64,000 nt of DNA from a virus. Below the pieces are notes generated by a model. That model was not told where the DNA came from, did not search any database, and worked only from the letters and a program-made list of their open reading frames with translations. The stretch lies in IMG/VR virus record IMGVR_UViG_3300002835_000024. The stretch is one strand, 5' to 3'. Shown piece after piece: positions 2,479-52,230 of this stretch; the first letter of the stretch is position 1, and each line of letters opens with the position of its first letter. The position numbers were made by a program, and so were the translations under genes.

Positions 2479-3402
2479 ATGCAACCAGCAAAGAAAACTT
2501 CTTACCTCGGCAATAAAAAACTAAAGAAATCTAACATTGCCATAGAGTGGACGCCAGATCGTATTCGTGAAATGATCAGGTGTAAAGAAGATGCCATTTA
2601 CTTTATTGAAACTTACTGTAAAATTATCCACGTTGACCGTGGACTTGTAAACTTTAAACTGCATCCCTTCCAAAAAGAAATGATAAGTGCCTATTCAGAT
2701 AACCGATTCGTTATCTGTAAGATGCCTCGTCAGGTCGGAAAAACAACCACAACTGCTGGATTTATTCTTTGGCGAGTTCTTTTCAACGAGCATTATAGCG
2801 TGGCTATTCTGGCCAACAAAGACAAAAAAGCCCGAGAAATCCTGGATAGAATCCAAAAGATGTTCGAAAACCTCCCACAGTGGATGCAGCAAGGTGTTAC
2901 TGAATGGAACAAAGGTAACATTGAGCTAGAAAATGGCTCTAAGATTGTGGCTACTTCTACCTCATCCTCCGCTGCTCGTGGTGATACCTATTCATGCGTA
3001 TATTTGGACGAATTTGCCCACGTCGAGAGGAATATACAGGAAGAATTCTTCGCATCAGTTTATCCTACTATTTCTTCGGGTGAAACAACCCAGCTGGTAA
3101 TGACCTCTACGCCAAAAGGTATGGAACTGTTTTACAAGATCTGGGTTGAATCAGAAGAAGGCAGAAACAGCTATAAAAGAGTTGAGGTGCACTGGTCTCA
3201 GGTTCCTGGAAGAGACCAAAAGTGGAAAGAAGAAACCATTGCGAACACCTCTGAGGATCTATTCAGGCAGGAACACGAGTGTGTTGACGGAAAAACACAA
3301 ATAACAGTTAGAAACAAAAAAACAGGAAAAACCAAGAAATTAACAATCAATAAATTTATAAATATGATTGTTAATTCTTTGGAGAATAATAATGCATTAT
3401 AG
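2479..3402 (+). CDS. gp17: Terminase large subunit N-terminal (ATPase) fragment fused to 40-aa N-intein
   Basis: Walker A RQVGKTT and Walker B YLDEFAH; extein ends FRQEHE, then CVDGKTQITV (intein block A) from nt 3280. Confidence 0.92.
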   Translation: MQPAKKTSYLGNKKLKKSNIAIEWTPDRIREMIRCKEDAIYFIETYCKIIHVDRGLVNFKLHPFQKEMISAYSDNRFVICKMPRQVGKTTTTAGFILWRVLFNEHYSVAILANKDKKAREILDRIQKMFENLPQWMQQGVTEWNKGNIELENGSKIVATSTSSSAARGDTYSCVYLDEFAHVERNIQEEFFASVYPTISSGETTQLVMTSTPKGMELFYKIWVESEEGRNSYKRVEVHWSQVPGRDQKWKEETIANTSEDLFRQEHECVDGKTQITVRNKKTGKTKKLTINKFINMIVNSLENNNAL

Positions 3403-40611: not shown

Positions 40612-43095
40612 ATGGGAAGTTTTTACACAAACGTTTCTAGAAAGGGTAACGATCTTCTCGTGAGAGGATTCGACTCCAACGGAAATCGTTTCAACCGAAA
40701 GGTTAAATACCAGCCATATCTTTTCATACCCTCTCAAACAGAGGATAAATTCAAGACCATTGAAGGCAAATCTGTCTCCAAGATTGAATTTGATTCGATG
40801 TCTGAAGCCAGAGAATTCCTGAAGCAATATGAAGATGTTGCTGGTATGGAAATCTATGGCTTCACTGATTTTATCTACGCTTATATCAACGACAGATACA
40901 AGTCCCAGATATCCTATGATCCTTCTCTGATCAGAACAGTGTTTATCGACATCGAGGTTTCCTCTGCTGGAGGATTCCCAGACATTGCAACTGCAGACAA
41001 GCCGATTACAGCCATCACTATTTCTTGGCGTGGGCGCAAACATGTGTTTGGTCTGAGAGACTTCAAGCCCCACAAAGACAATGTGATATACTATCACTGC
41101 AAAGACGAAGAGACTCTGCTGGCGAAGTTCCTGACTTATTGGCAGGAAATATCGCCAGATTGTGTTACAGGCTGGAACGTAGAGTTCTTCGATATTCCGT
41201 ATATCATCAACAGAATCAAAGCGGTCTTTGATGACGCCCAAGCTGCCAGGCTTTCTCCCTGGTTTCTCTTGAGAGAATACGAAGTTGAGATCAGAGGTAA
41301 GATGAACAAGGCTTACACTCCTGTTGGCATCAACGTTCTCGATTACATTAACCTGTACAAGAAGTTTACCTACTCTCAGCAAGAGTCTTATACTCTCAAT
41401 CATATATCGTATGTCGAGCTTGGTGAGAAGAAGGTTGACTATTCTCAGTATGGTTCTCTTAATGATTTGTATGAGAAGAATCACCAGCTGTTCATTGAAT
41501 ATAACGTCAAAGACGTTGAGCTTGTTGAGCGCCTAGAAGACAAGATGAAACTGATTGAGCTTGTCTTTGCCATGGCTTATGATGCCAAGGTCAACTTCGA
41601 AGATACTCTTGGTTCAGTTAAGCAGTGGGATGTTATCATCCACAACTATCTGCTTTCTCAGAATATTGTTGTCCCACAATTCAAGAAAAAGCCAAACTCT
41701 GAAATCGTTGGTGGCTACGTCAAAGAGCCTGTCATCGGAATGAGCAAGTGGGTCGTCTCAATGGACTTCAAGAGTCTGTATCCCCACCTGATCATGACCT
41801 ATAACATCTCGCCAGAAACTCTAGCTGGCAAAGTTGACAGATTCTATTCTGTTGACGAACTCTTACAGAAGCAGTTCGAGCACGATGGCCAATACAGTTA
41901 CTGCGCCAACGGAACCTATTACTCTAAAGATAAGCAGGGGTTCCTTCCTTATCTTATGCAGAAGATGTATAATGATCGCGCTGAAGCCCAGAAGCAGCTT
42001 AAGCAAATCAAGAAGCAATATAACGATACAAAAGATGAGAGTTTGCTGAAGCAAATATCCGCTCTCAACAACAAGCAGATGGCCAAGAAGATTCAGCTGA
42101 ACTCAGCTTACGGTGCTCTTGCCAATATGTATTTCCGTTGGTTCAATGCTGATATTGCCGAGGCTATCACCCTTTCTGGTCAGCTTGCCATTCGTTGGGT
42201 TGAGACGAACGTCAACAGATATCTCAATGGTATGTTCAAGACCAAAAAAGATTATGTCATTGCGGTTGATACCGATTCAAACTATATCACCCTCGAGAAA
42301 TTGGTTGAGCAATATCAATCTTTCTCCAAAACCGATGATGTGAAAAAGATCGTTGATGTGATTGATAAATTCGTTGAGAGTAAGCTGAAGCCTTTCATTG
42401 ATTCAGCTTGCCAAGATCTCCACGAATATATGAATTCTTATGAGCAAAAGCTTGTTATGAACCGAGAGGCTATCGCAGATAAAGGTATCTGGAAAGCCAA
42501 GAAGATGTATATCCTGAACGTTCTTGATCAAGAAGGCGTTCGTTACGATTCCCCCAAGCTAAAGATGATGGGCATCGAGGCGATCAAATCCTCAACTCCA
42601 ACTTCCTGTAGACAGAATCTCAAGAAGGCATTTGAGATTGTCATGAATCAAACAGAGGGCCAACTCCAGCAATTCGTTGCTGACTTCAAGAGTCAGTTTT
42701 CTAGTTTGCCGTTTGAAGAGGTTGCGTTCCCTCGAGGTGTCAAGGATATCGAAAAGTGGGAAGGCAAGAACGGAAACTATCTTTCAGGAACACCAATCCA
42801 CGTCAAAGCCTCTATGGCGTTCAATGCTATTGTTGATGATCTTGGTCTTCAGAATAAATATGAGAAGATCGTCTCTGGTTCCAAGATCAAATTCTGTTAT
42901 ATGAGAACTCCCAATCGCTACAACATACAGGTATTGGGGTGTCCATCAACAATGCCAGACGAATTCAAGATGCAGAAACACATAAACTATGACATGCAAT
43001 TTGATAAGGGCTTCATTGAACCGCTACGCAGTATCACCGAAACCATTGGCTGGAATATCGAGAAGCTCTCAACCCTCGAAGATTTTTGGAATTAA
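40612..43095 (+). CDS. gp43: DNA polymerase gp43 (family B)
   Basis: DIEV exonuclease motif, DFKSLYP, K-LNSAYG, DTDS, KKMY. Confidence 0.98.
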   Translation: MGSFYTNVSRKGNDLLVRGFDSNGNRFNRKVKYQPYLFIPSQTEDKFKTIEGKSVSKIEFDSMSEAREFLKQYEDVAGMEIYGFTDFIYAYINDRYKSQISYDPSLIRTVFIDIEVSSAGGFPDIATADKPITAITISWRGRKHVFGLRDFKPHKDNVIYYHCKDEETLLAKFLTYWQEISPDCVTGWNVEFFDIPYIINRIKAVFDDAQAARLSPWFLLREYEVEIRGKMNKAYTPVGINVLDYINLYKKFTYSQQESYTLNHISYVELGEKKVDYSQYGSLNDLYEKNHQLFIEYNVKDVELVERLEDKMKLIELVFAMAYDAKVNFEDTLGSVKQWDVIIHNYLLSQNIVVPQFKKKPNSEIVGGYVKEPVIGMSKWVVSMDFKSLYPHLIMTYNISPETLAGKVDRFYSVDELLQKQFEHDGQYSYCANGTYYSKDKQGFLPYLMQKMYNDRAEAQKQLKQIKKQYNDTKDESLLKQISALNNKQMAKKIQLNSAYGALANMYFRWFNADIAEAITLSGQLAIRWVETNVNRYLNGMFKTKKDYVIAVDTDSNYITLEKLVEQYQSFSKTDDVKKIVDVIDKFVESKLKPFIDSACQDLHEYMNSYEQKLVMNREAIADKGIWKAKKMYILNVLDQEGVRYDSPKLKMMGIEAIKSSTPTSCRQNLKKAFEIVMNQTEGQLQQFVADFKSQFSSLPFEEVAFPRGVKDIEKWEGKNGNYLSGTPIHVKASMAFNAIVDDLGLQNKYEKIVSGSKIKFCYMRTPNRYNIQVLGCPSTMPDEFKMQKHINYDMQFDKGFIEPLRSITETIGWNIEKLSTLEDFWN

Positions 43096-43186: not shown

Positions 43187-43510
43187 ATGAAAGAAAGAGA
43201 AGAAATATTTTTTGATTTTGGCTTTACTACACAAGACGAAAATGATATAATAGCCAATAGTGATCTACACTATGATGTGGAGACGACTCGAGACAGAGTT
43301 GTTCAACTAGAAACATTGTTGAAAACAATGAACAAAAAAGTCCATACCATTTATGATAGAATATCGCCTTTGTTGAATAATCTTTTAAAAGATGCAGATG
43401 AGAAACCAATTATCAATTGGCCAAACAGAAAAGAAAAGATTACAGAATTTCAAAAGATACTGAAGAAAATTGTCGATGAAGCTGACCAGATTATTAAAGG
43501 AGAGAGTTGA
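43187..43510 (+). CDS. Hypothetical protein
   Basis: FDFGFT, PLLNNL, I-WPNR; between gp43 and uvsX. Confidence 0.7.
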   Translation: MKEREEIFFDFGFTTQDENDIIANSDLHYDVETTRDRVVQLETLLKTMNKKVHTIYDRISPLLNNLLKDADEKPIINWPNRKEKITEFQKILKKIVDEADQIIKGES

Positions 43511-44580
43511 TGGCCAAGAAGAATGATTTTTTGAGGGACTTCATTTCCGAACTAGGAGATGAGAATACTTCTATTGCAGCCGATGGAGTTTCGGCGGGAG
43601 AGTTTGCTGGATTTGTTGATACGGGTTGTTATGCACTGAACGCTGTGCTTTCTGGTTCAATCTATGGTGGAATCGCTGATAATAAAGTGACAGGGTTCGC
43701 TGGCGAAAGCTCAACTGGCAAAACCTTTTTCGTTCTTGGCATTGTCAAGAATTTCCTTGATGCGAATGAAGATGGATTCGTTGTTTATTATGATACAGAA
43801 GCAGCTGTCACTAAGGATATGATGGAGAGCAGAGGTATTGACACTTCTCGTGTTGTTATCTCAGAACAAGAAACTATCCAGAAATTCAGGCATCATGCTA
43901 TCAAGATCATTGACAGTTATGTTGCCAAACCAGAAGCAAAACGCCCGAAGATGATGATGGTTCTTGATTCTCTTGGTATGCTTTCAACTACGAAAGAGTT
44001 GGAAGATTCTACTGAAGGAAAAGAAACTCGTGATATGACCAAAGCCCAAGTCATTAAAGCTGCATTCAGGGTTCTAACTTTGAAGCTGGCAAGAGCGAAG
44101 ATTCCTCTGATTATTACCAACCATGTTTATGCGGCTGTTGGTGCATATGTTCCAACAAATGAAATCTCTGGTGGGTCTGGTTTCAAGTTTGCTGCAACTA
44201 CCATTGCAATGCTTTCGAAGAAAAAAGAAAGAGAAGGTACTGATGTTGTTGGTAATATTGTTACCGTCAAGATGTATAAGTCTCGCCTGTCGAAAGAAAA
44301 TCAAATGGTCCACGTCAGGCTTTCTTATGCAACAGGACTTGATAGATATTATGGACTAGCAGAAATTGCCGAAGAAGCTGGTGTGTTTGAAAAGGTTGGC
44401 AACAAACTGAAGATGCCAGACGGCAAAACTATTTTTGAAAAAGCGCTTAATCGCGAGCCTGAAAAGTATTATACTCAAGAAGTGCTTGATGCCATCGAGA
44501 AGCAAGTGAAACAAAAATTTGCTTACGGAGTTAACAGCCTTGACGATGAGCTAGAGGAAGTTTATGAAGAGGAAGAATAG
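43507..44580 (+). CDS. uvsX: RecA-like recombinase UvsX
   Basis: GESSTGKT, YDTE, DSLGML, TNHVY, GGSG. Confidence 0.95.
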   Translation: MMAKKNDFLRDFISELGDENTSIAADGVSAGEFAGFVDTGCYALNAVLSGSIYGGIADNKVTGFAGESSTGKTFFVLGIVKNFLDANEDGFVVYYDTEAAVTKDMMESRGIDTSRVVISEQETIQKFRHHAIKIIDSYVAKPEAKRPKMMMVLDSLGMLSTTKELEDSTEGKETRDMTKAQVIKAAFRVLTLKLARAKIPLIITNHVYAAVGAYVPTNEISGGSGFKFAATTIAMLSKKKEREGTDVVGNIVTVKMYKSRLSKENQMVHVRLSYATGLDRYYGLAEIAEEAGVFEKVGNKLKMPDGKTIFEKALNREPEKYYTQEVLDAIEKQVKQKFAYGVNSLDDELEEVYEEEE

Positions 44581-44853: not shown

Positions 44854-46281
44854 ATGACATCAGAGAGAGTTGAAGACGCCATATTTTCGAATCTCTTGCA
44901 TAATGAGAATTATGCCAGAAAAGTTATTCCTTTTATCAAAGAAAGTTATTTCCAGGATGTAACAGACAGGACGCTCTTCAATCTTATCGACACCTTTGTT
45001 GCCAAGTATAATAAATTCCCAACCAAAGAATCTCTTCTAGTTGATCTACAGGCAATCAACAATCTTCAAGAATCCACATTCAAAGATCTCAAGAAATATA
45101 TCTCCGATATCTCTGAAAAGAAATTTGAGGACCAGTGGCTTGTTGATAAAACTGAAGAGTTCTGCAAAGACAAAGCGTTGTATAATGCTTTGATGGACGC
45201 CATCAAGATTGTCGATGATGGCAAAAACAAGGGCAATCTATCAGTAGGATCTATCCCTAAGATTCTATCTGATGCTCTTGGTGTTTCTTTTGACACGAGT
45301 ATCGGCCATGACTTTCTTGACAATGCCGATCAACGATATGACTTCTATCATTTGGTTGAGAACAAAGTCAAGTTCGATCTTGATTACTTCAACAAGATCA
45401 CAAAGGGTGGCATTGCCAACAAAACTCTGAACATCATCATGGCTTCCACTGGTGTTGGTAAAAGTTTGTTCATGTGTCACTGTGCGGCCAACAATCTCTC
45501 GGAGGGATTGAACGTTCTTTATATCACTCTGGAAATGGCCGAGGAAAGAATCGCCGAAAGGATAGACGCCAATCTTCTTGATATGACTATTGACGAGCTC
45601 AAACAACTTCCTAAAGATTCTTATCTGAAAAAGATCAATAGGGTGAAGAAAAAGACTGATGGTAAATTGATCATCAAAGAATATCCGACAGCTTCAGTCG
45701 GATCTGCCAACTTCAGGCATCTGTTGAATGAGCTAAGTCTGAAGAAAGACTTCAAACCTGATATCATATATATAGATTACCTAAACATATGTTGCAGTTC
45801 TCGTTTTAAAAATATGGCTGGCGTTAATTCTTACACTCTGGTCAAATCTATTGCTGAAGAATTGAGAGGACTGGCTATTGAGTTTGATGTGCCTATTATT
45901 TCGGCGACCCAAACGAATAGATCAGGTTATGATAACAGCGATGTGGATTTAAGTAACACTTCTGAATCGTTTGGTCTGCCAGCAACTTGTGACTTTATGT
46001 TTGCTCTGATATCTAATGAACAACTGGAATCTCTAAATCAAATTATGGTGAAACAACTTAAGAATCGCTATAATGATCTAAACTATTACAAGAAGTTTGT
46101 GATTGGTGTTGATAGGTCGAAGATGAGATTGTATGATGTCGAGGAAAGCGCCCAAAGCGATATAGTTGACAACAGTTCTAAGAAGGAGGAAGACAGGCCA
46201 GTTATGGATAATACCGTTTTCGGAAGTCGTATGAATGATGATGCAGATTATAGGAAGCAGAAGATGAGGGAATTCTTTTGA
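44854..46281 (+). CDS. gp41: Replicative helicase gp41
   Basis: GVGKS, TLEMAEE-IAER-DAN, IDYLNI, ATQTNR, SESFGLP, KQLKNR. Confidence 0.97.
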   Translation: MTSERVEDAIFSNLLHNENYARKVIPFIKESYFQDVTDRTLFNLIDTFVAKYNKFPTKESLLVDLQAINNLQESTFKDLKKYISDISEKKFEDQWLVDKTEEFCKDKALYNALMDAIKIVDDGKNKGNLSVGSIPKILSDALGVSFDTSIGHDFLDNADQRYDFYHLVENKVKFDLDYFNKITKGGIANKTLNIIMASTGVGKSLFMCHCAANNLSEGLNVLYITLEMAEERIAERIDANLLDMTIDELKQLPKDSYLKKINRVKKKTDGKLIIKEYPTASVGSANFRHLLNELSLKKDFKPDIIYIDYLNICCSSRFKNMAGVNSYTLVKSIAEELRGLAIEFDVPIISATQTNRSGYDNSDVDLSNTSESFGLPATCDFMFALISNEQLESLNQIMVKQLKNRYNDLNYYKKFVIGVDRSKMRLYDVEESAQSDIVDNSSKKEEDRPVMDNTVFGSRMNDDADYRKQKMREFF

Positions 46282-48496: not shown

Positions 48497-48557
48497 CGTT
48501 TTTAGGCGTGTTTTGGCATTTATTAATGAAAATTAACGAAAAAGTTTGGGGTTAACG

Positions 48558-48767
48558 GAAAAAACCTAATAAAATCAGTCAAACATTACCAATATTTAAT
48601 GTTGAGGGGGATTTACTTCCTCTTCCATTGGGGTAGAATGGTCCTGTTCTGGGAAGGCTCTGTGACTATCGAGGCCGATCCTACCTGACTATCGGTTTGA
48701 TCACTGTCCGCAGATACCGCTGTTTGACATCGTGGAAAGATTGACGGGCCACCGATCTAGGTGTCCC
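48558..48767 (+). promoter_or_regulatory. Early promoter/leader copy 1: palindrome, TTTACT-N16-TAGAAT, boxA-like GCTGTTTGACA
   Basis: Homologous to 51561-51750. Confidence 0.65.
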
Positions 48768-48875
48768 ATGGGGCTCGCTGGGCTTAAACCCAGCGATGCC
48801 ATGTTTGTTGCGAAAGTCAGCTTAGTGCGCTGACGCCCCAAAACACGACTTTGTTGCATTTTTAAGCGCCTGGTT

Positions 48876-48905
48876 GGGCTTGTAGCTCAATTGGTTAGAG
48901 CCGAC
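48876..48905 (+). pseudogene. 5' fragment of a disrupted tRNA
   Basis: GGGCTTGTAGCTCAATTGGTTAGAGCCGAC; acceptor strand pairs with the fragment at 49516-49538. Confidence 0.8.
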
Positions 48906-48953
48906 TGTAAATTTTGTTATTTTATAAATAAGTCATAGGTTTGGAGAAATTCT

Positions 48954-49457
48954 ATGTATACTGTTTATAAGATAACAAATTTGGTCAACCAAAAATATTA
49001 CATCGGCGTCCACAAAACAGATAACCCATATGATTCTTATATGGGGTCTGGATATGCAGTAAAATCCGCCATCAAAAAACACGGCAGAAAGAATTTTATA
49101 AAGGAAATTCTTTTTACCACAGTTGATAAAGAAGAAGCTTACGCTTTCGAGAAAAAATTAACTGAAGATTATATGACAAGAGATTCATATAATATGAAAA
49201 TTGGTGGCGTTGGAGGGTTTTCTAGAGAGAACGCTTTAAAGGGGCATGCCGCTTCTCTAAAGAAATTAACAAAACAACAACGTTCTGATAATGGAAAACT
49301 TGGTTACGCTGCAATGCTTCCCAAAATCAATCTAAATGAGATTGGCAGAAGGGGAGGTCAGGCTAACAGAGGCAAACCAAAATCCGAAGCGCATAAAGAA
49401 AAACTTCGGCAAGTTTGGAGAGACAAAAAAATAAGGGCGAGTCGCCAAGAGGTCTAA
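48954..49457 (+). CDS. GIY-YIG homing endonuclease (Seg-like) with late promoter 48923-48930
   Basis: VYKITN-KYYIGVH, YMGSG, YN-GG; NUMOD3-like KSEAHKEKL. Confidence 0.9.
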   Translation: MYTVYKITNLVNQKYYIGVHKTDNPYDSYMGSGYAVKSAIKKHGRKNFIKEILFTTVDKEEAYAFEKKLTEDYMTRDSYNMKIGGVGGFSRENALKGHAASLKKLTKQQRSDNGKLGYAAMLPKINLNEIGRRGGQANRGKPKSEAHKEKLRQVWRDKKIRASRQEV

Positions 49458-49511
49458 GGCCGCCACCTCATAAGTGGTTCATCGCAGGTTCAAATCCTGC
49501 CTCGCCTACCA
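49435..49511 (+). tRNA. tRNA-Met/Ile2(CAT)
   Basis: Cloverleaf GGGCGAG/CTCGCCT, loop CTCATAA, GTTCAAATC, CCA; overlaps the endonuclease 3' end. Confidence 0.85.
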
Positions 49512-49515
49512 TTTT

Positions 49516-49538
49516 TTCAAGTCCAGCCGAGCCTACCA
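49516..49538 (+). pseudogene. 3' fragment of the disrupted tRNA
   Basis: TTCAAGTCCAGC-CGAGCCT-ACCA. Confidence 0.75.
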
Positions 49539-49572
49539 GACGCTTAAATGTGCAACAACGAAAGGAAAGCTA

Positions 49573-49857: not shown

Positions 49858-49920
49858 GCTTCCATCTGACCCCAGTGGAAACCCACTGGGGTACAGGCGT
49901 AGTTGAAATGGAGAAAATGA

Positions 49921-50166
49921 ATGCAAACCGAAACGTCCAACGTAGAAGTCTTCGCTCTTATTGCAAGGCTTGAATGGAACGATTTCGAAGACTCTGACTA
50001 TCAGTCTTTCTCTGGCGTAATAAGCAAAACGCCTCTGATTGCTGAAGATGAAGAGCTTCAACTCATCTATGTCCTAGATGATCAGGTTCTGCAGGTGCTC
50101 GACTCCCGTGGTAATGTGAAGAAAATATACACTCTTCGCGCCACTGAAGCGATCAGAGCTCTGTAA
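49921..50166 (+). CDS. Hypothetical early protein
   Basis: GGAG RBS after hairpin 1. Confidence 0.65.
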   Translation: MQTETSNVEVFALIARLEWNDFEDSDYQSFSGVISKTPLIAEDEELQLIYVLDDQVLQVLDSRGNVKKIYTLRATEAIRAL

Positions 50167-50223
50167 TCTGCCTACCCCTACGCAAAAGCGTGGGGGTTTT
50201 GGCGTGTCTAATGGAGAAAAACT

Positions 50224-50448
50224 ATGTTTTCTAACTGGAAATACCGTGTATATGATACGGTAGAAAAGAAATATGCCATCAAGAAACGTTATGCTTCTGA
50301 TGCAGAAGCAATGGTCGCTGTAGAGCGTCTAAGACGTAGGCATAAAGACAGTCCCTTTGGCAGGTTCATGGTTCTTGTCGATCCTGGTATAAAGAAAAAA
50401 CGCCATAGTGACTATTATCAATCCCGAATCGTCTATGTCGGTGATTGA
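50224..50448 (+). CDS. Hypothetical early protein
   Basis: GGAG RBS after hairpin 2. Confidence 0.65.
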   Translation: MFSNWKYRVYDTVEKKYAIKKRYASDAEAMVAVERLRRRHKDSPFGRFMVLVDPGIKKKRHSDYYQSRIVYVGD

Positions 50449-50503
50449 TTCCTTACCCCAGCGAAAACTCGCTGGGGTCAAGGCGTAGTTAGGAGTGTGT
50501 AAC

Positions 50504-50605
50504 ATGAGAAATATAAACTGGGGTTTCATTTTCGGAATGCTATTCTGTGTGGCCTTTTGGCTATCAGTTATTGTTTCGATCAACATCTTGATTCAAGGAA
50601 ACTAA
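50504..50605 (+). CDS. 33-aa single-TM peptide (not in ORF track)
   Basis: AGGAG RBS after hairpin 3; MRNINWGFIFGMLF... Confidence 0.5.
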   Translation: MRNINWGFIFGMLFCVAFWLSVIVSINILIQGN

Positions 50606-50607
50606 TT

Positions 50608-50829
50608 ATGGAAACCTTTACCGTAGACAACGCTGCTATGGGTCGAGCCAAGGTCTGGGAATACAAACAGGAAGAAACTGTTCGTGAAATTCCCTGCCAG
50701 GGCTGTAAATTCATTGTTCGATGCACTGATTCGCTCACTGATTGCTTCGCCTTCAGGCGTTGGACTCATAGTGGTAACTACAGCGATCGCCAGATCAACC
50801 ATCTGGTTCGTCCTTTTGAAACGGAGTAA
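50608..50829 (+). CDS. Cys-rich hypothetical protein
   Basis: AAGGA RBS; PCQGC, C, C. Confidence 0.55.
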   Translation: METFTVDNAAMGRAKVWEYKQEETVREIPCQGCKFIVRCTDSLTDCFAFRRWTHSGNYSDRQINHLVRPFETE

Positions 50830-50832
50830 ATT

Positions 50833-51096
50833 ATGATCAATCGCAAACTCAAACTCATCGAAGAAAAAGGATCTATCAATACTCTTCGATTCGTCAACGA
50901 GATGACAAAACTTCCAGTTGGAATCATCTATAAGACGAGAGACGAAAAAGGAATACTCTGGCAAGTTGAAGCCTTTGATGACTTCAACGGCAAGACCAAG
51001 GGATTCCGAAGCTTGGAAGCGGCAAGATATTACTTGTGCGCTTTCGCCGTTGAGGCTTGGGAAGAAGAAGTCGCAGAGATGCGATTTGCGAGTTAA
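50833..51096 (+). CDS. Hypothetical protein
   Basis: GGAG RBS. Confidence 0.6.
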   Translation: MINRKLKLIEEKGSINTLRFVNEMTKLPVGIIYKTRDEKGILWQVEAFDDFNGKTKGFRSLEAARYYLCAFAVEAWEEEVAEMRFAS

Positions 51097-51161
51097 ACTC
51101 CTCACCCCACTGGAAACCCAGTGGGGTCGAGGCGTAGCTAAAGCATGTATGGAGAAAAATA

Positions 51162-51539
51162 ATGCTTCCTGCTGGTGAATACTATATCGGTGATCTTTGC
51201 TACGTCATTGATGACGAGAATTGGGATAACTTCTGTGCAATGACTTGTTTCGGGAACCATGTTCTCGATGGCGAGTTTAATTTCCAGGGTACTGCTATCG
51301 CTTGCTACGGAACTATGTACGGCGATGGTTGCTACAGAGATCAAACGGGCCACGAATATCCTGTGGATGCTGGTTTGATTGGTTGTATCCTTCTGAGCGA
51401 AATCACCAAACCAGAAGGTGTCGAACATGGAAGGGTTGTCACTTTTGAGAGATCTTTCAGAACGTTCAGTTATAGAGGCGTCATCGGGTTCGATAACGTC
51501 CAAATCGACACCAGCGATAACGAAAAAGACGAATATTAA
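51162..51539 (+). CDS. Hypothetical phage protein
   Basis: YYIGDLCYV, GDG-Y, VDAGLIG; after hairpin 4. Confidence 0.7.
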   Translation: MLPAGEYYIGDLCYVIDDENWDNFCAMTCFGNHVLDGEFNFQGTAIACYGTMYGDGCYRDQTGHEYPVDAGLIGCILLSEITKPEGVEHGRVVTFERSFRTFSYRGVIGFDNVQIDTSDNEKDEY

Positions 51540-51560
51540 CGAAAAATATTCGTCCCTGCA

Positions 51561-51750
51561 GAAAAAACCTAATAAAATCAGTCCAACATTACGAAGATTT
51601 AATGTTGGAGGGGTTTACTTCCTCGTTCGATAGGGTAGAATGGTTGTGTTCTGGAAGGGTTCAGTGACTATCGAGACCTGCCTTCGGGCACTCCCAGTTC
51701 CACTGTTTGACATTGTAGAGAGACTGACGCGACCTCCGCCTAGGAGGCGC
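51561..51750 (+). promoter_or_regulatory. Early promoter/leader copy 2: palindrome, TTTACT-N16-TAGAAT, UUCG hairpin, boxA-like ACTGTTTGACA
   Basis: Homologous to 48558-48767. Confidence 0.65.
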
Positions 51751-51830
51751 AATTGCCGACCTCACCCCAGTGGAAACCCACTGGGGTAGAGGCGTAGCTA
51801 GCAATCAGGCTAGAATGAGGAAACTTGATT

Positions 51831-51992
51831 ATGAAAAATGCGAAAAAAGCTGCTGCTCCGTTTGTTATCAAGCACAAGAATGCCAGGACTGGCCAGACTT
51901 TTGTGCTGACGTATACTGATGGTGAAGTTGCGCGTCGCGCTTCTGCTTACTTCACCGAACTCGGTATCGAACATAAGCTGATCGCTGCTTAA
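51831..51992 (+). CDS. 53-aa basic protein (not in ORF track)
   Basis: GAGG RBS after hairpin 5. Confidence 0.6.
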   Translation: MKNAKKAAAPFVIKHKNARTGQTFVLTYTDGEVARRASAYFTELGIEHKLIAA

Positions 51993-52041
51993 TTACCCGC
52001 CCACCCCACTGGAAACCCAGTGGGGTCGAGGCGTAGTTAGA

Positions 52042-52230
52042 ATGGAGAAACTTATGTCTAAGATGGCTATCTTCTTTCAAGAAACTGGTGAAGAAGGAAT
52101 CATCCACTATAATGATGGGGAAACCCTAGAACAGCTTCTAGAGCGTTCTCCCCCTGAGTGGCGATATCGCTACACAGAAACTCCTCGTCGTTATCAGTAC
52201 GATCCTGATCGTGATGATTACGATTACTGA
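52042..52230 (+). CDS. Hypothetical protein (start probably 52054)
   Basis: After hairpin 6. Confidence 0.55.
   Translation: MEKLMSKMAIFFQETGEEGIIHYNDGETLEQLLERSPPEWRYRYTETPRRYQYDPDRDDYDY

Follow-up and report, generated by a model that had tools for sequence, protein, structure and literature searches.

Homing endonucleases usually spare their host, either by hiding in introns or inteins that splice themselves out or by occupying the space between genes. Among phage nucleases, the system most similar to the one described here is SegB of T4 and T6, a free-standing GIY-YIG enzyme that is encoded among tRNA genes and controlled by a late promoter and a regulatory hairpin; it cuts tRNA genes by way of the T-loop motif GGTTCRANTCC and drives the inheritance of the T4 tRNA region (PMC2330249), and its homologs are statistically enriched near tRNAs (PMC13096335). 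In T4, tRNA-Ile(CAT) precedes segB by 41 nt and tRNA-Arg follows it after 5 nt; segB sits between intact tRNA genes, and the available text of the SegB reports describes neither a split resident tRNA nor a dedicated replacement with the same anticodon. A late promoter placed within a hairpin that blocks early translation is common to segB and to I-TevI, which, like the other intron-borne T4 endonucleases, has the GIY-YIG fold and a recognition site that is split by the insertion (PMC2988022). A substitute travelling with the nuclease is known from the mobile endonuclease ORFs (mORFs) of fungal mitochondria (Allomyces atp6; Glomus atp6, atp9, cox2 and nad3), in which an inserted endonuclease ORF carries a foreign gene end that acts as a diverged substitute, and the native piece is left behind as an unexpressed remnant (PMC3630166).

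The cassette that we describe is a variant of the kinds known from T4 SegB and the fungal mORFs. It was found in a stretch of viral DNA of 64,000 nt (hereafter, the window) that originates from a T4-like myovirus, with homologs of the gp43 DNA polymerase (40612-43095), UvsX (43507-44580) and the gp41 helicase (44854-46281). In cultured phages, no DNA closely related to the window was found; the matches there are confined to short stretches of the nuclease gene, 72-80% identical, in cyanomyoviruses such as P-RSM4 and S-TIM4. Between 48876 and 49538, a resident tRNA gene is split into a 5' and a 3' piece, and between the two come a late promoter of the T4 type, a GIY-YIG gene resembling the Seg genes and, lastly, an intact tRNA(CAT) (Table 1). 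Unlike in segB, the nuclease ORF physically overlaps the tRNA. The fungal mORFs differ from the cassette in that they target protein genes and replace only the C-terminal end, whereas the cassette supplies a whole RNA gene; furthermore, their nucleases are mostly of the LAGLIDADG type and their host is a eukaryotic organelle. A search of the open-access literature found no published phage nuclease cassette that splits a tRNA and supplies a replacement with the same anticodon.

Table 1. Coordinates of the cassette, the split resident tRNA and the surrounding hairpin in the window
Feature	Position	Strand	Remarks
Leader hairpin, 5' arm	48851..48875	+	Inverted repeat I2; the resident tRNA sits on top of the hairpin
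Resident tRNA, 5' fragment	48876..48907	+	Acceptor 5' strand, D arm, nt 26 and anticodon-stem 5' strand (GACTG)
Hairpin holding the late promoter and pairing the start codon	48910..48982	+	Inverted repeat I3
T4-type late promoter TATAAATA	48923..48930	+	GGAG at 48943-48946
Seg-like GIY-YIG homing endonuclease gene	48954..49457	+	167 aa; Pfam, phrog and fold search
Intact cassette-borne tRNA(CAT)	49435..49511	+	ARAGORN; Rfam
T-rich spacer, right-hand junction	49512..49515	+	Similar T runs after the cassette tRNA in L038, L044 and L046
Resident tRNA, 3' fragment	49516..49538	+	T loop, T-stem 3' strand, acceptor 3' strand and ACCA
Leader hairpin, 3' arm	49535..49558	+	Shares ACCA with the 3' fragment and borders on the ribosome-binding site of the following gene

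A first-pass annotation of the window had noticed two tRNA fragments with complementary acceptor strands, and both of them are there. The 5' fragment reads GGGCTTG-TA-GCTC-AATTGGTTA-GAGC-C-GACTG and the 3' fragment, which extends to 49538, reads TTCAAGT-CCAGC-CGAGCCT-ACCA; the acceptor strands GGGCTTG and CGAGCCT form 7/7 pairs, two G.U pairs among them, with a chance probability of about 0.001. The annotation had the start of the 5' fragment right (48876) but its end too early (48905), as the fragment runs on for the remainder of the 5' strand of the anticodon stem. Similarly, its statement that the ancestral anticodon arm is gone holds only in part: positions 32-53, that is, 22 nt including the anticodon, are indeed absent and are all that the resident tRNA lacks, but the 5' strand of the anticodon stem survives and the left junction is at the anticodon loop. 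The 19-nt D-arm motif of the 5' fragment has a single copy in the window against 0.01 expected by chance, and the first 26 nt of the fragment are identical in the intact tRNA genes of L001-L004, all with the anticodon CAT; the L180 sequence with which the fragment can be compared is GAGCCGACTA-CTCATAA. Between the 3' fragment and the corresponding end of the intact tRNA, identity is 83% (direct repeat D1). The 5' fragment, by manual count, is about 53% identical to the 5' half of the neighbouring intact tRNA, which makes it a different allele and not a duplicate.

Several other identities for the split gene were considered and rejected. With the 22 nt that include the anticodon missing, the pieces cannot be functional split tRNA halves, and splicing cannot restore the interrupted tRNA because nt 32-53 are gone. 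A group I intron in the anticodon loop, which would have made the nuclease intron-borne like I-TevI, is contradicted by the same gap, and Rfam gave no intron family at E 10 or better; its search of the insert found no known RNA family other than tRNA. An integrase-made partial tRNA duplicate does not fit either: the 700-bp insert contains no integrase-like ORF, the 5' fragment is present and the copies differ.

Inside the insert, the late promoter, the GIY-YIG ORF, the intact tRNA(CAT) and an overlap of 23 nt between the last two were all recovered at the positions given by the first-pass annotation. The ORF matches the Pfam GIY-YIG family (PF01541) with 24.9 bits, the cut-off being 22.6, and phrog_314, 'homing endonuclease', with an E value of 1.7e-35; among cultured phages, no match exceeds 42% identity. 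The BLASTP alignment to T4 SegB is 51% identical and covers the catalytic domain, residues 1-95, only; the DNA-binding C-terminal halves are unrelated and do not align, and the nuclease is thus no full-length ortholog of SegB. Residues Y5, Y16, G18, E66 and N80 are invariant in 15 homologs, and a structure predicted from these homologs has a pLDDT near 90 in the N-terminal domain. The top PDB matches of the model are the I-TevI catalytic domain structures 1mk0 and 1ln0 (probability 1.0, TM-score 0.55-0.60 on the target), a likeness seen by fold search only, as a PDB sequence search with the profile of the nuclease family returned no match. The C-terminal part has a conserved NUMOD3-like motif (GKPKSE.HK), the reading frame is kept open in 14/15 aligned ORFs and, judged from the alignment and the model, the nuclease domain looks intact. 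On the other hand, a C-terminal helix-turn-helix-like extension is kept only by L038; the other aligned homologs, that of the window included, end inside the tRNA, and the family members without the extension may be weakened or inactive. No further Seg copies were found within the window.

The expression signals resemble those of T4 in both type and arrangement. A late promoter is found 10-30 nt upstream of the ATG in 16/17 family members, while L038 has CATAAATA there. In the window, the promoter is held by the 5' arm of a hairpin in which the AUG is paired, with a folding energy of -24.5 kcal/mol and a z-score of -4.95; counterpart hairpins fold in L005 and L038 (z -3.2 and -3.4) and a weak one in L116 (z -0.95). 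With TATAAATA inside a predicted fold that sequesters the AUG, the layout corresponds to T4-type hairpin control, with late expression as its predicted timing, and the hairpin likely serves in the translational control of the nuclease. The carried tRNA was called as a tRNA(CAT) by ARAGORN, one of the checks that had been proposed, and was recognised as a cloverleaf by Rfam (RF00005; 55.6 bits, E 1e-10). Its first 23 nt double as the C-terminus of the nuclease and its stop codon.

The resident tRNA does not stand alone but is embedded in a larger hairpin. The outer flanks form inverted repeat I2 (48851-48877 and 49532-49558; 27 nt, 85% complementary), with a duplex energy of about -45 kcal/mol. 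Their complementarity had been pointed out before and stands, but the accompanying reading as a precursor processing stem does not: homologous hairpins are found in L025, L029 and L030 without a tRNA, showing five compensatory pair changes (TTGTTGCA/TGCAACAA vs. CTTGCTCA/TGAGCAAG) and a variable tip. As the relatives L025-L030 share the outer stem and have no tRNA, we regard the structure as a conserved leader hairpin and not as a tRNA-specific processing stem. An Rfam search of L025, L029 and L030 gave no family above chance, and the tips of their hairpins are therefore no recognisable tRNAs. The tip consists of a three-way junction of about 75 nt in L025-L027 (L025 5419-5535), of an extension of about 55 nt in L029 (5261-5361), of a plain hairpin in L030 and of the tRNA in the window, and it seems to be a hot spot for insertions.

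Other structured elements were observed in the neighbourhood. A GC-rich leader at 48528-48850, with a second copy 3 kb downstream (51531-51751), contains a promoter-like GATTTACT..TAGAAT and has a core in common with L025, L029 and L030; compensatory changes affect 7 of its 31 predicted pairs, it has no match in Rfam, and it has been read as an rRNA-operon-like leader with a boxA-like motif, CGCTGTTTGACAT. Between the small genes at 49869-52050, there are five copies of a 48-nt unit made of a hairpin, ACCCCAGTGG-AAAC-CCACTGGGGT, and then ..GGCGTAGTTAGAAT..; the units are reminiscent of the promoter-early stem-loop cassettes known from T4-type phages.

Searching IMG/VR and the JGI metagenomes with the protein as guide yielded 17 distinct homologs that are at least 50% identical over the full length, 15 of which could be evaluated for linkage with a script based on tblastn and ARAGORN. 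In 14 of the 15, a tRNA starts close to the end of the stop codon, at most 36 nt ahead of it or 6 nt beyond it; the anticodon is CAT in 13 and TAT in one, L045. The exceptions to the linkage are L043, in which the tRNA is chimeric, and L048, in which the contig ends. Homologs that share only the catalytic domain mostly have no tRNA nearby; a few precede other tRNAs, namely tRNA-Ala (L103), tRNA-Leu (L122) and tRNA-Lys (L099), and the one in L063 precedes a tRNA with CAT. One type of cassette tRNA is found in five contexts (L005, L006, L087, L092 and L046) and is 91-96% identical among them; identity falls to 55-66% for the nucleases linked to it, and most of the flanks show no relationship. 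The linkage of ORF and tRNA, and the sharing of one tRNA type across contexts, indicate that the unit moves or persists as a whole, and the similarity of the tRNAs beside such diverged nucleases indicates strong constraint on the tRNA. Recurring in about 15 other uncultured phages, the nuclease-plus-tRNA unit looks like a mobile element.

Some loci appear to hold partial versions of the unit. A type-A tRNA occurs without a nuclease in one context; upstream of it, in L202 (2740-2920), the 3' end of the preceding ORF is duplicated and diverged (..CADRLKEILYNQQK.. vs. ..AADRMKEILYNQQKK..), which recalls the gene-end duplications left by the fungal mORFs. The nuclease of L007 has an in-frame stop, and the same locus contains a second unit (1720-1887) in which the 5' fragment of a tRNA is followed by a hairpin, AGGAGG and an ORF of only 3 codons (ATG-AAA-ACT-TGA); this ORF runs into another tRNA(CAT), whose variable region is long. 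The second unit, which has no nuclease, looks like a decayed cassette.

Splitting of the resident tRNA is a feature that recurs independently. Every family member has, ahead of the late promoter, no less than the 3' part of the D arm (GGTTARAGCC), and many have the full 5' fragment. On the downstream side, the window, L116, L044 and L043 (7/7 pairs in each) and L047 (6/7) have a 3' fragment whose acceptor strand is complementary to that of the 5' fragment; most cassettes have no 3' fragment, and the right-hand repair route probably varies between loci. A split-and-replace layout was also found at a tRNA-Leu(TAA) (L122, 2460-3110), next to a nuclease that shares the catalytic domain only. In L063 (750-1380), the 5' fragment exactly repeats the cassette tRNA over its first 32 nt and reaches tRNA position 33, the break coming right before CAT. 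The situation is more complex in L043, with debris at 2984-3130, after the nuclease ORF: the 5' part of a Gln-like tRNA joins the resident 3' end at the T loop; the acceptor strand of the latter matches the upstream 5' fragment, and a further orphan tRNA 3' end follows.

The junctions themselves can be read by comparison with intact targets. These have ..AGCC-GRCCG-CT continued by CATAA-CGGTC.., and in several cassettes the same ..AGCC-GRCCG-CT is continued by (G)TATAAATA; nt 33 is thus the last before the break and nt 34 the first after it, which places the break immediately 5' of the anticodon; it is also the point where the late promoter begins. The constant left junction may have been inherited with the cassette from one ancestral insertion and hence, by itself, maps no cut site. 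The right-hand join of the window, ACCA-TTTT-TTCAAGT, looks non-homologous, which suggests the first invasion of a diverged allele. Targets and cassettes also differ in their tRNA types: a D stem of the form GCT[CT]/[AG]AGC is found in 15/19 targets and is absent in 14/15 cassette tRNAs, and the latter differ from the targets in the anticodon stem as well. Finally, L175 (3151-3226) and L177 (2810-2885) have identical flanks and acceptor stems and no nuclease, but the interior of the tRNA(CAT) is of the 'cassette' type in one and of the 'resident' type in the other; such a difference is the footprint that would be expected of an allele replacement followed by loss of the nuclease.

If the cassette interrupts a tRNA gene, relatives with the uninterrupted gene should exist, and the first-pass annotation had proposed to look for them. 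The outcome is divided. None was found in the window's own lineage: its nearest syntenic relatives, L025-L030, with 61-67% amino acid identity in the neighbouring upstream metallophosphoesterase gene, have neither nuclease nor tRNA at this site, and with no tRNA in their hairpin, we infer the intact ancestor of the window locus from the fragments only. Relatives reached through the ArdC-like downstream gene were discarded, being only 34-41% identical and having no tRNA. In a sister lineage (L005, L006 and L047), however, 41 syntenic loci could be compared: the cassette occupies 3 of them, 27 have an intact tRNA(CAT) and no nuclease at that spot, and in 5 more an intact tRNA(CAT) lies up to about 1.4 kb upstream; a single locus is there polymorphic for the presence of the cassette among related genomes. 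L147 has an intact tRNA that the fragments of L047 match, and the downstream flank of L047 recurs in L181. As for the anticodon of the lost tRNA, the exact 26-nt 5' half of the window's fragment is found in four viral tRNAs, each of them with CAT, and in 17 genomes of bacteria, with CAT in 10 and the rest including Lys, Val and Ala; the 5' half alone is not diagnostic of CAT. Intact tRNAs that combine this 5' half with a 3' strand of the CGAGCC type have CAT in 5/5 cases (L002, L191-L193 and L199). Overall, the conserved unit, the recurrent split flanks and the intact sites of the sister lineage support, at the level of sequence comparison, the central claim of the annotation that a GIY-YIG cassette was inserted in a tRNA(CAT)-type gene and brought a substitute tRNA(CAT) with it.

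A CAT anticodon may belong to tRNA-Met or to tRNA-Ile2, and there are weak hints of Ile2 rather than Met. The homolog in L045 has the anticodon TAT, and the T4 tRNA-Ile has CAT and a similar 5' half. The minus strand gives a weak Rfam match to Plastid-ycf2, which presumably is antisense to the plastid trnI-CAU. Neither the annotated tRNAs of phages nor those of E. coli separated the two identities: compared with the tRNAs of E. coli, the resident type matches both Met and Ile, and the cassette type matches nothing.

We consider it probable that the locus contains a free-standing, SegB-like GIY-YIG homing cassette specialised for the tRNA(CAT) genes of T4-like phages. The unit consists of a short 5' remnant of the target, covering the D arm and the 5' strand of the anticodon stem, of a late promoter set in a hairpin, of the nuclease ORF and of a complete tRNA(CAT); the last represents a different sequence type, and its start falls within the nuclease ORF, near the 3' end, or directly behind it. 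The resident 5' piece remains upstream of the cassette and, in some loci, a 3' piece remains on the other side. During mixed infection, the nuclease would cut the resident-type tRNA(CAT) gene of a cassette-free phage, and the repair would copy the cassette, the conserved tRNA sequence acting as at least the left homology arm. The donor would be immune because its resident site is split, and the carried tRNA, differing in the D stem and the anticodon stem, would escape the cutting too; as the carried tRNA would restore decoding, the insertion would cost little.

An alternative history is that the nuclease merely landed beside a tRNA, in the manner of free-standing Seg genes, and that the pieces are debris of repeated SegB-like T-loop cuts and of the illegitimate repair or segmental duplication that came after them, with no replacement design. 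SegB recognises the motif GGTTCRANTCC and cuts many tRNA genes, and it drives segmental amplification via microhomology between segB and tRNAs; moreover, two right junctions, those of the window and L044, are in the T loop, and so is the joint of the chimeric tRNA of L043 with its extra orphan 3' end. We nevertheless find this explanation quite unlikely: the 5' fragment of the window, with its identity of about 53% to the neighbouring 5' half, comes from a different allele, the left junction is constant across the family, ORF and tRNA are linked in 14/15 homologs, and in the relatives that lack the nuclease, the site holds one intact tRNA(CAT) and no more. The scarcity of the cassette among the syntenic relatives (3/41) suggests a fairly recent gain and speaks against another explanation, according to which the cassette is the fossil of an old invasion, the nuclease being truncated at the tRNA and inactive in homing, and the tRNA being kept for the needs of the phage. 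Open frames in 14/15 aligned ORFs, the conservation of the catalytic residues and the NUMOD3-like motif at 50-75% overall identity in many contexts, and the conserved late promoter and hairpin point in the same direction. A fossil would be in line with the helix-turn-helix-like extension being confined to L038 and the other ORFs ending inside the tRNA, with a tRNA that is far better conserved than the nuclease, with the in-frame stop of L007 and with the non-toxicity of C-terminally truncated SegB; on balance, we see it as unlikely.

The role of the tRNA could also be of another kind. Phage tRNAs can neutralise tRNA-targeting defences, with SegB helping to spread or amplify them, and the cassette tRNAs differ systematically from the resident ones in the D stem and the anticodon stem; on these grounds, the tRNA could be seen as a cargo that is selected for other reasons, either escape from a host tRNA-cleaving defence or shaping of the 3' end of the nuclease mRNA, with the nuclease as its driver. 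The same anticodon is restored nearly every time, however, and compensation alone accounts for that; selection of the tRNA as such a cargo appears very improbable. Beyond the homing cassette that we favour, one may speculate, at long odds, about a gene drive for tRNA alleles, in which the universal shape of tRNA genes would provide the landing site: the drive would jump between unrelated T4-like phages and spread tRNA(CAT) variants that, by their altered D and anticodon stems, would escape host tRNA-cleaving defences as well, doubling as an anti-defence vehicle.

As a homing cassette for tRNA(CAT) genes, the nuclease-tRNA family would represent a third route besides the introns or inteins and the spaces between genes, and one taken on an RNA gene: the target is destroyed, and a working, presumably immune copy is delivered in the same segment. 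If true, this would account for the frequent occurrence of Seg-type nucleases next to phage tRNAs, for swaps of tRNA alleles between phage lineages, such as that seen between L175 and L177, and for the orphan tRNA pieces in tRNA clusters. The cassette would then be a natural and compact 'cleave and rescue' drive, in which both the target and the rescue sequences are short.
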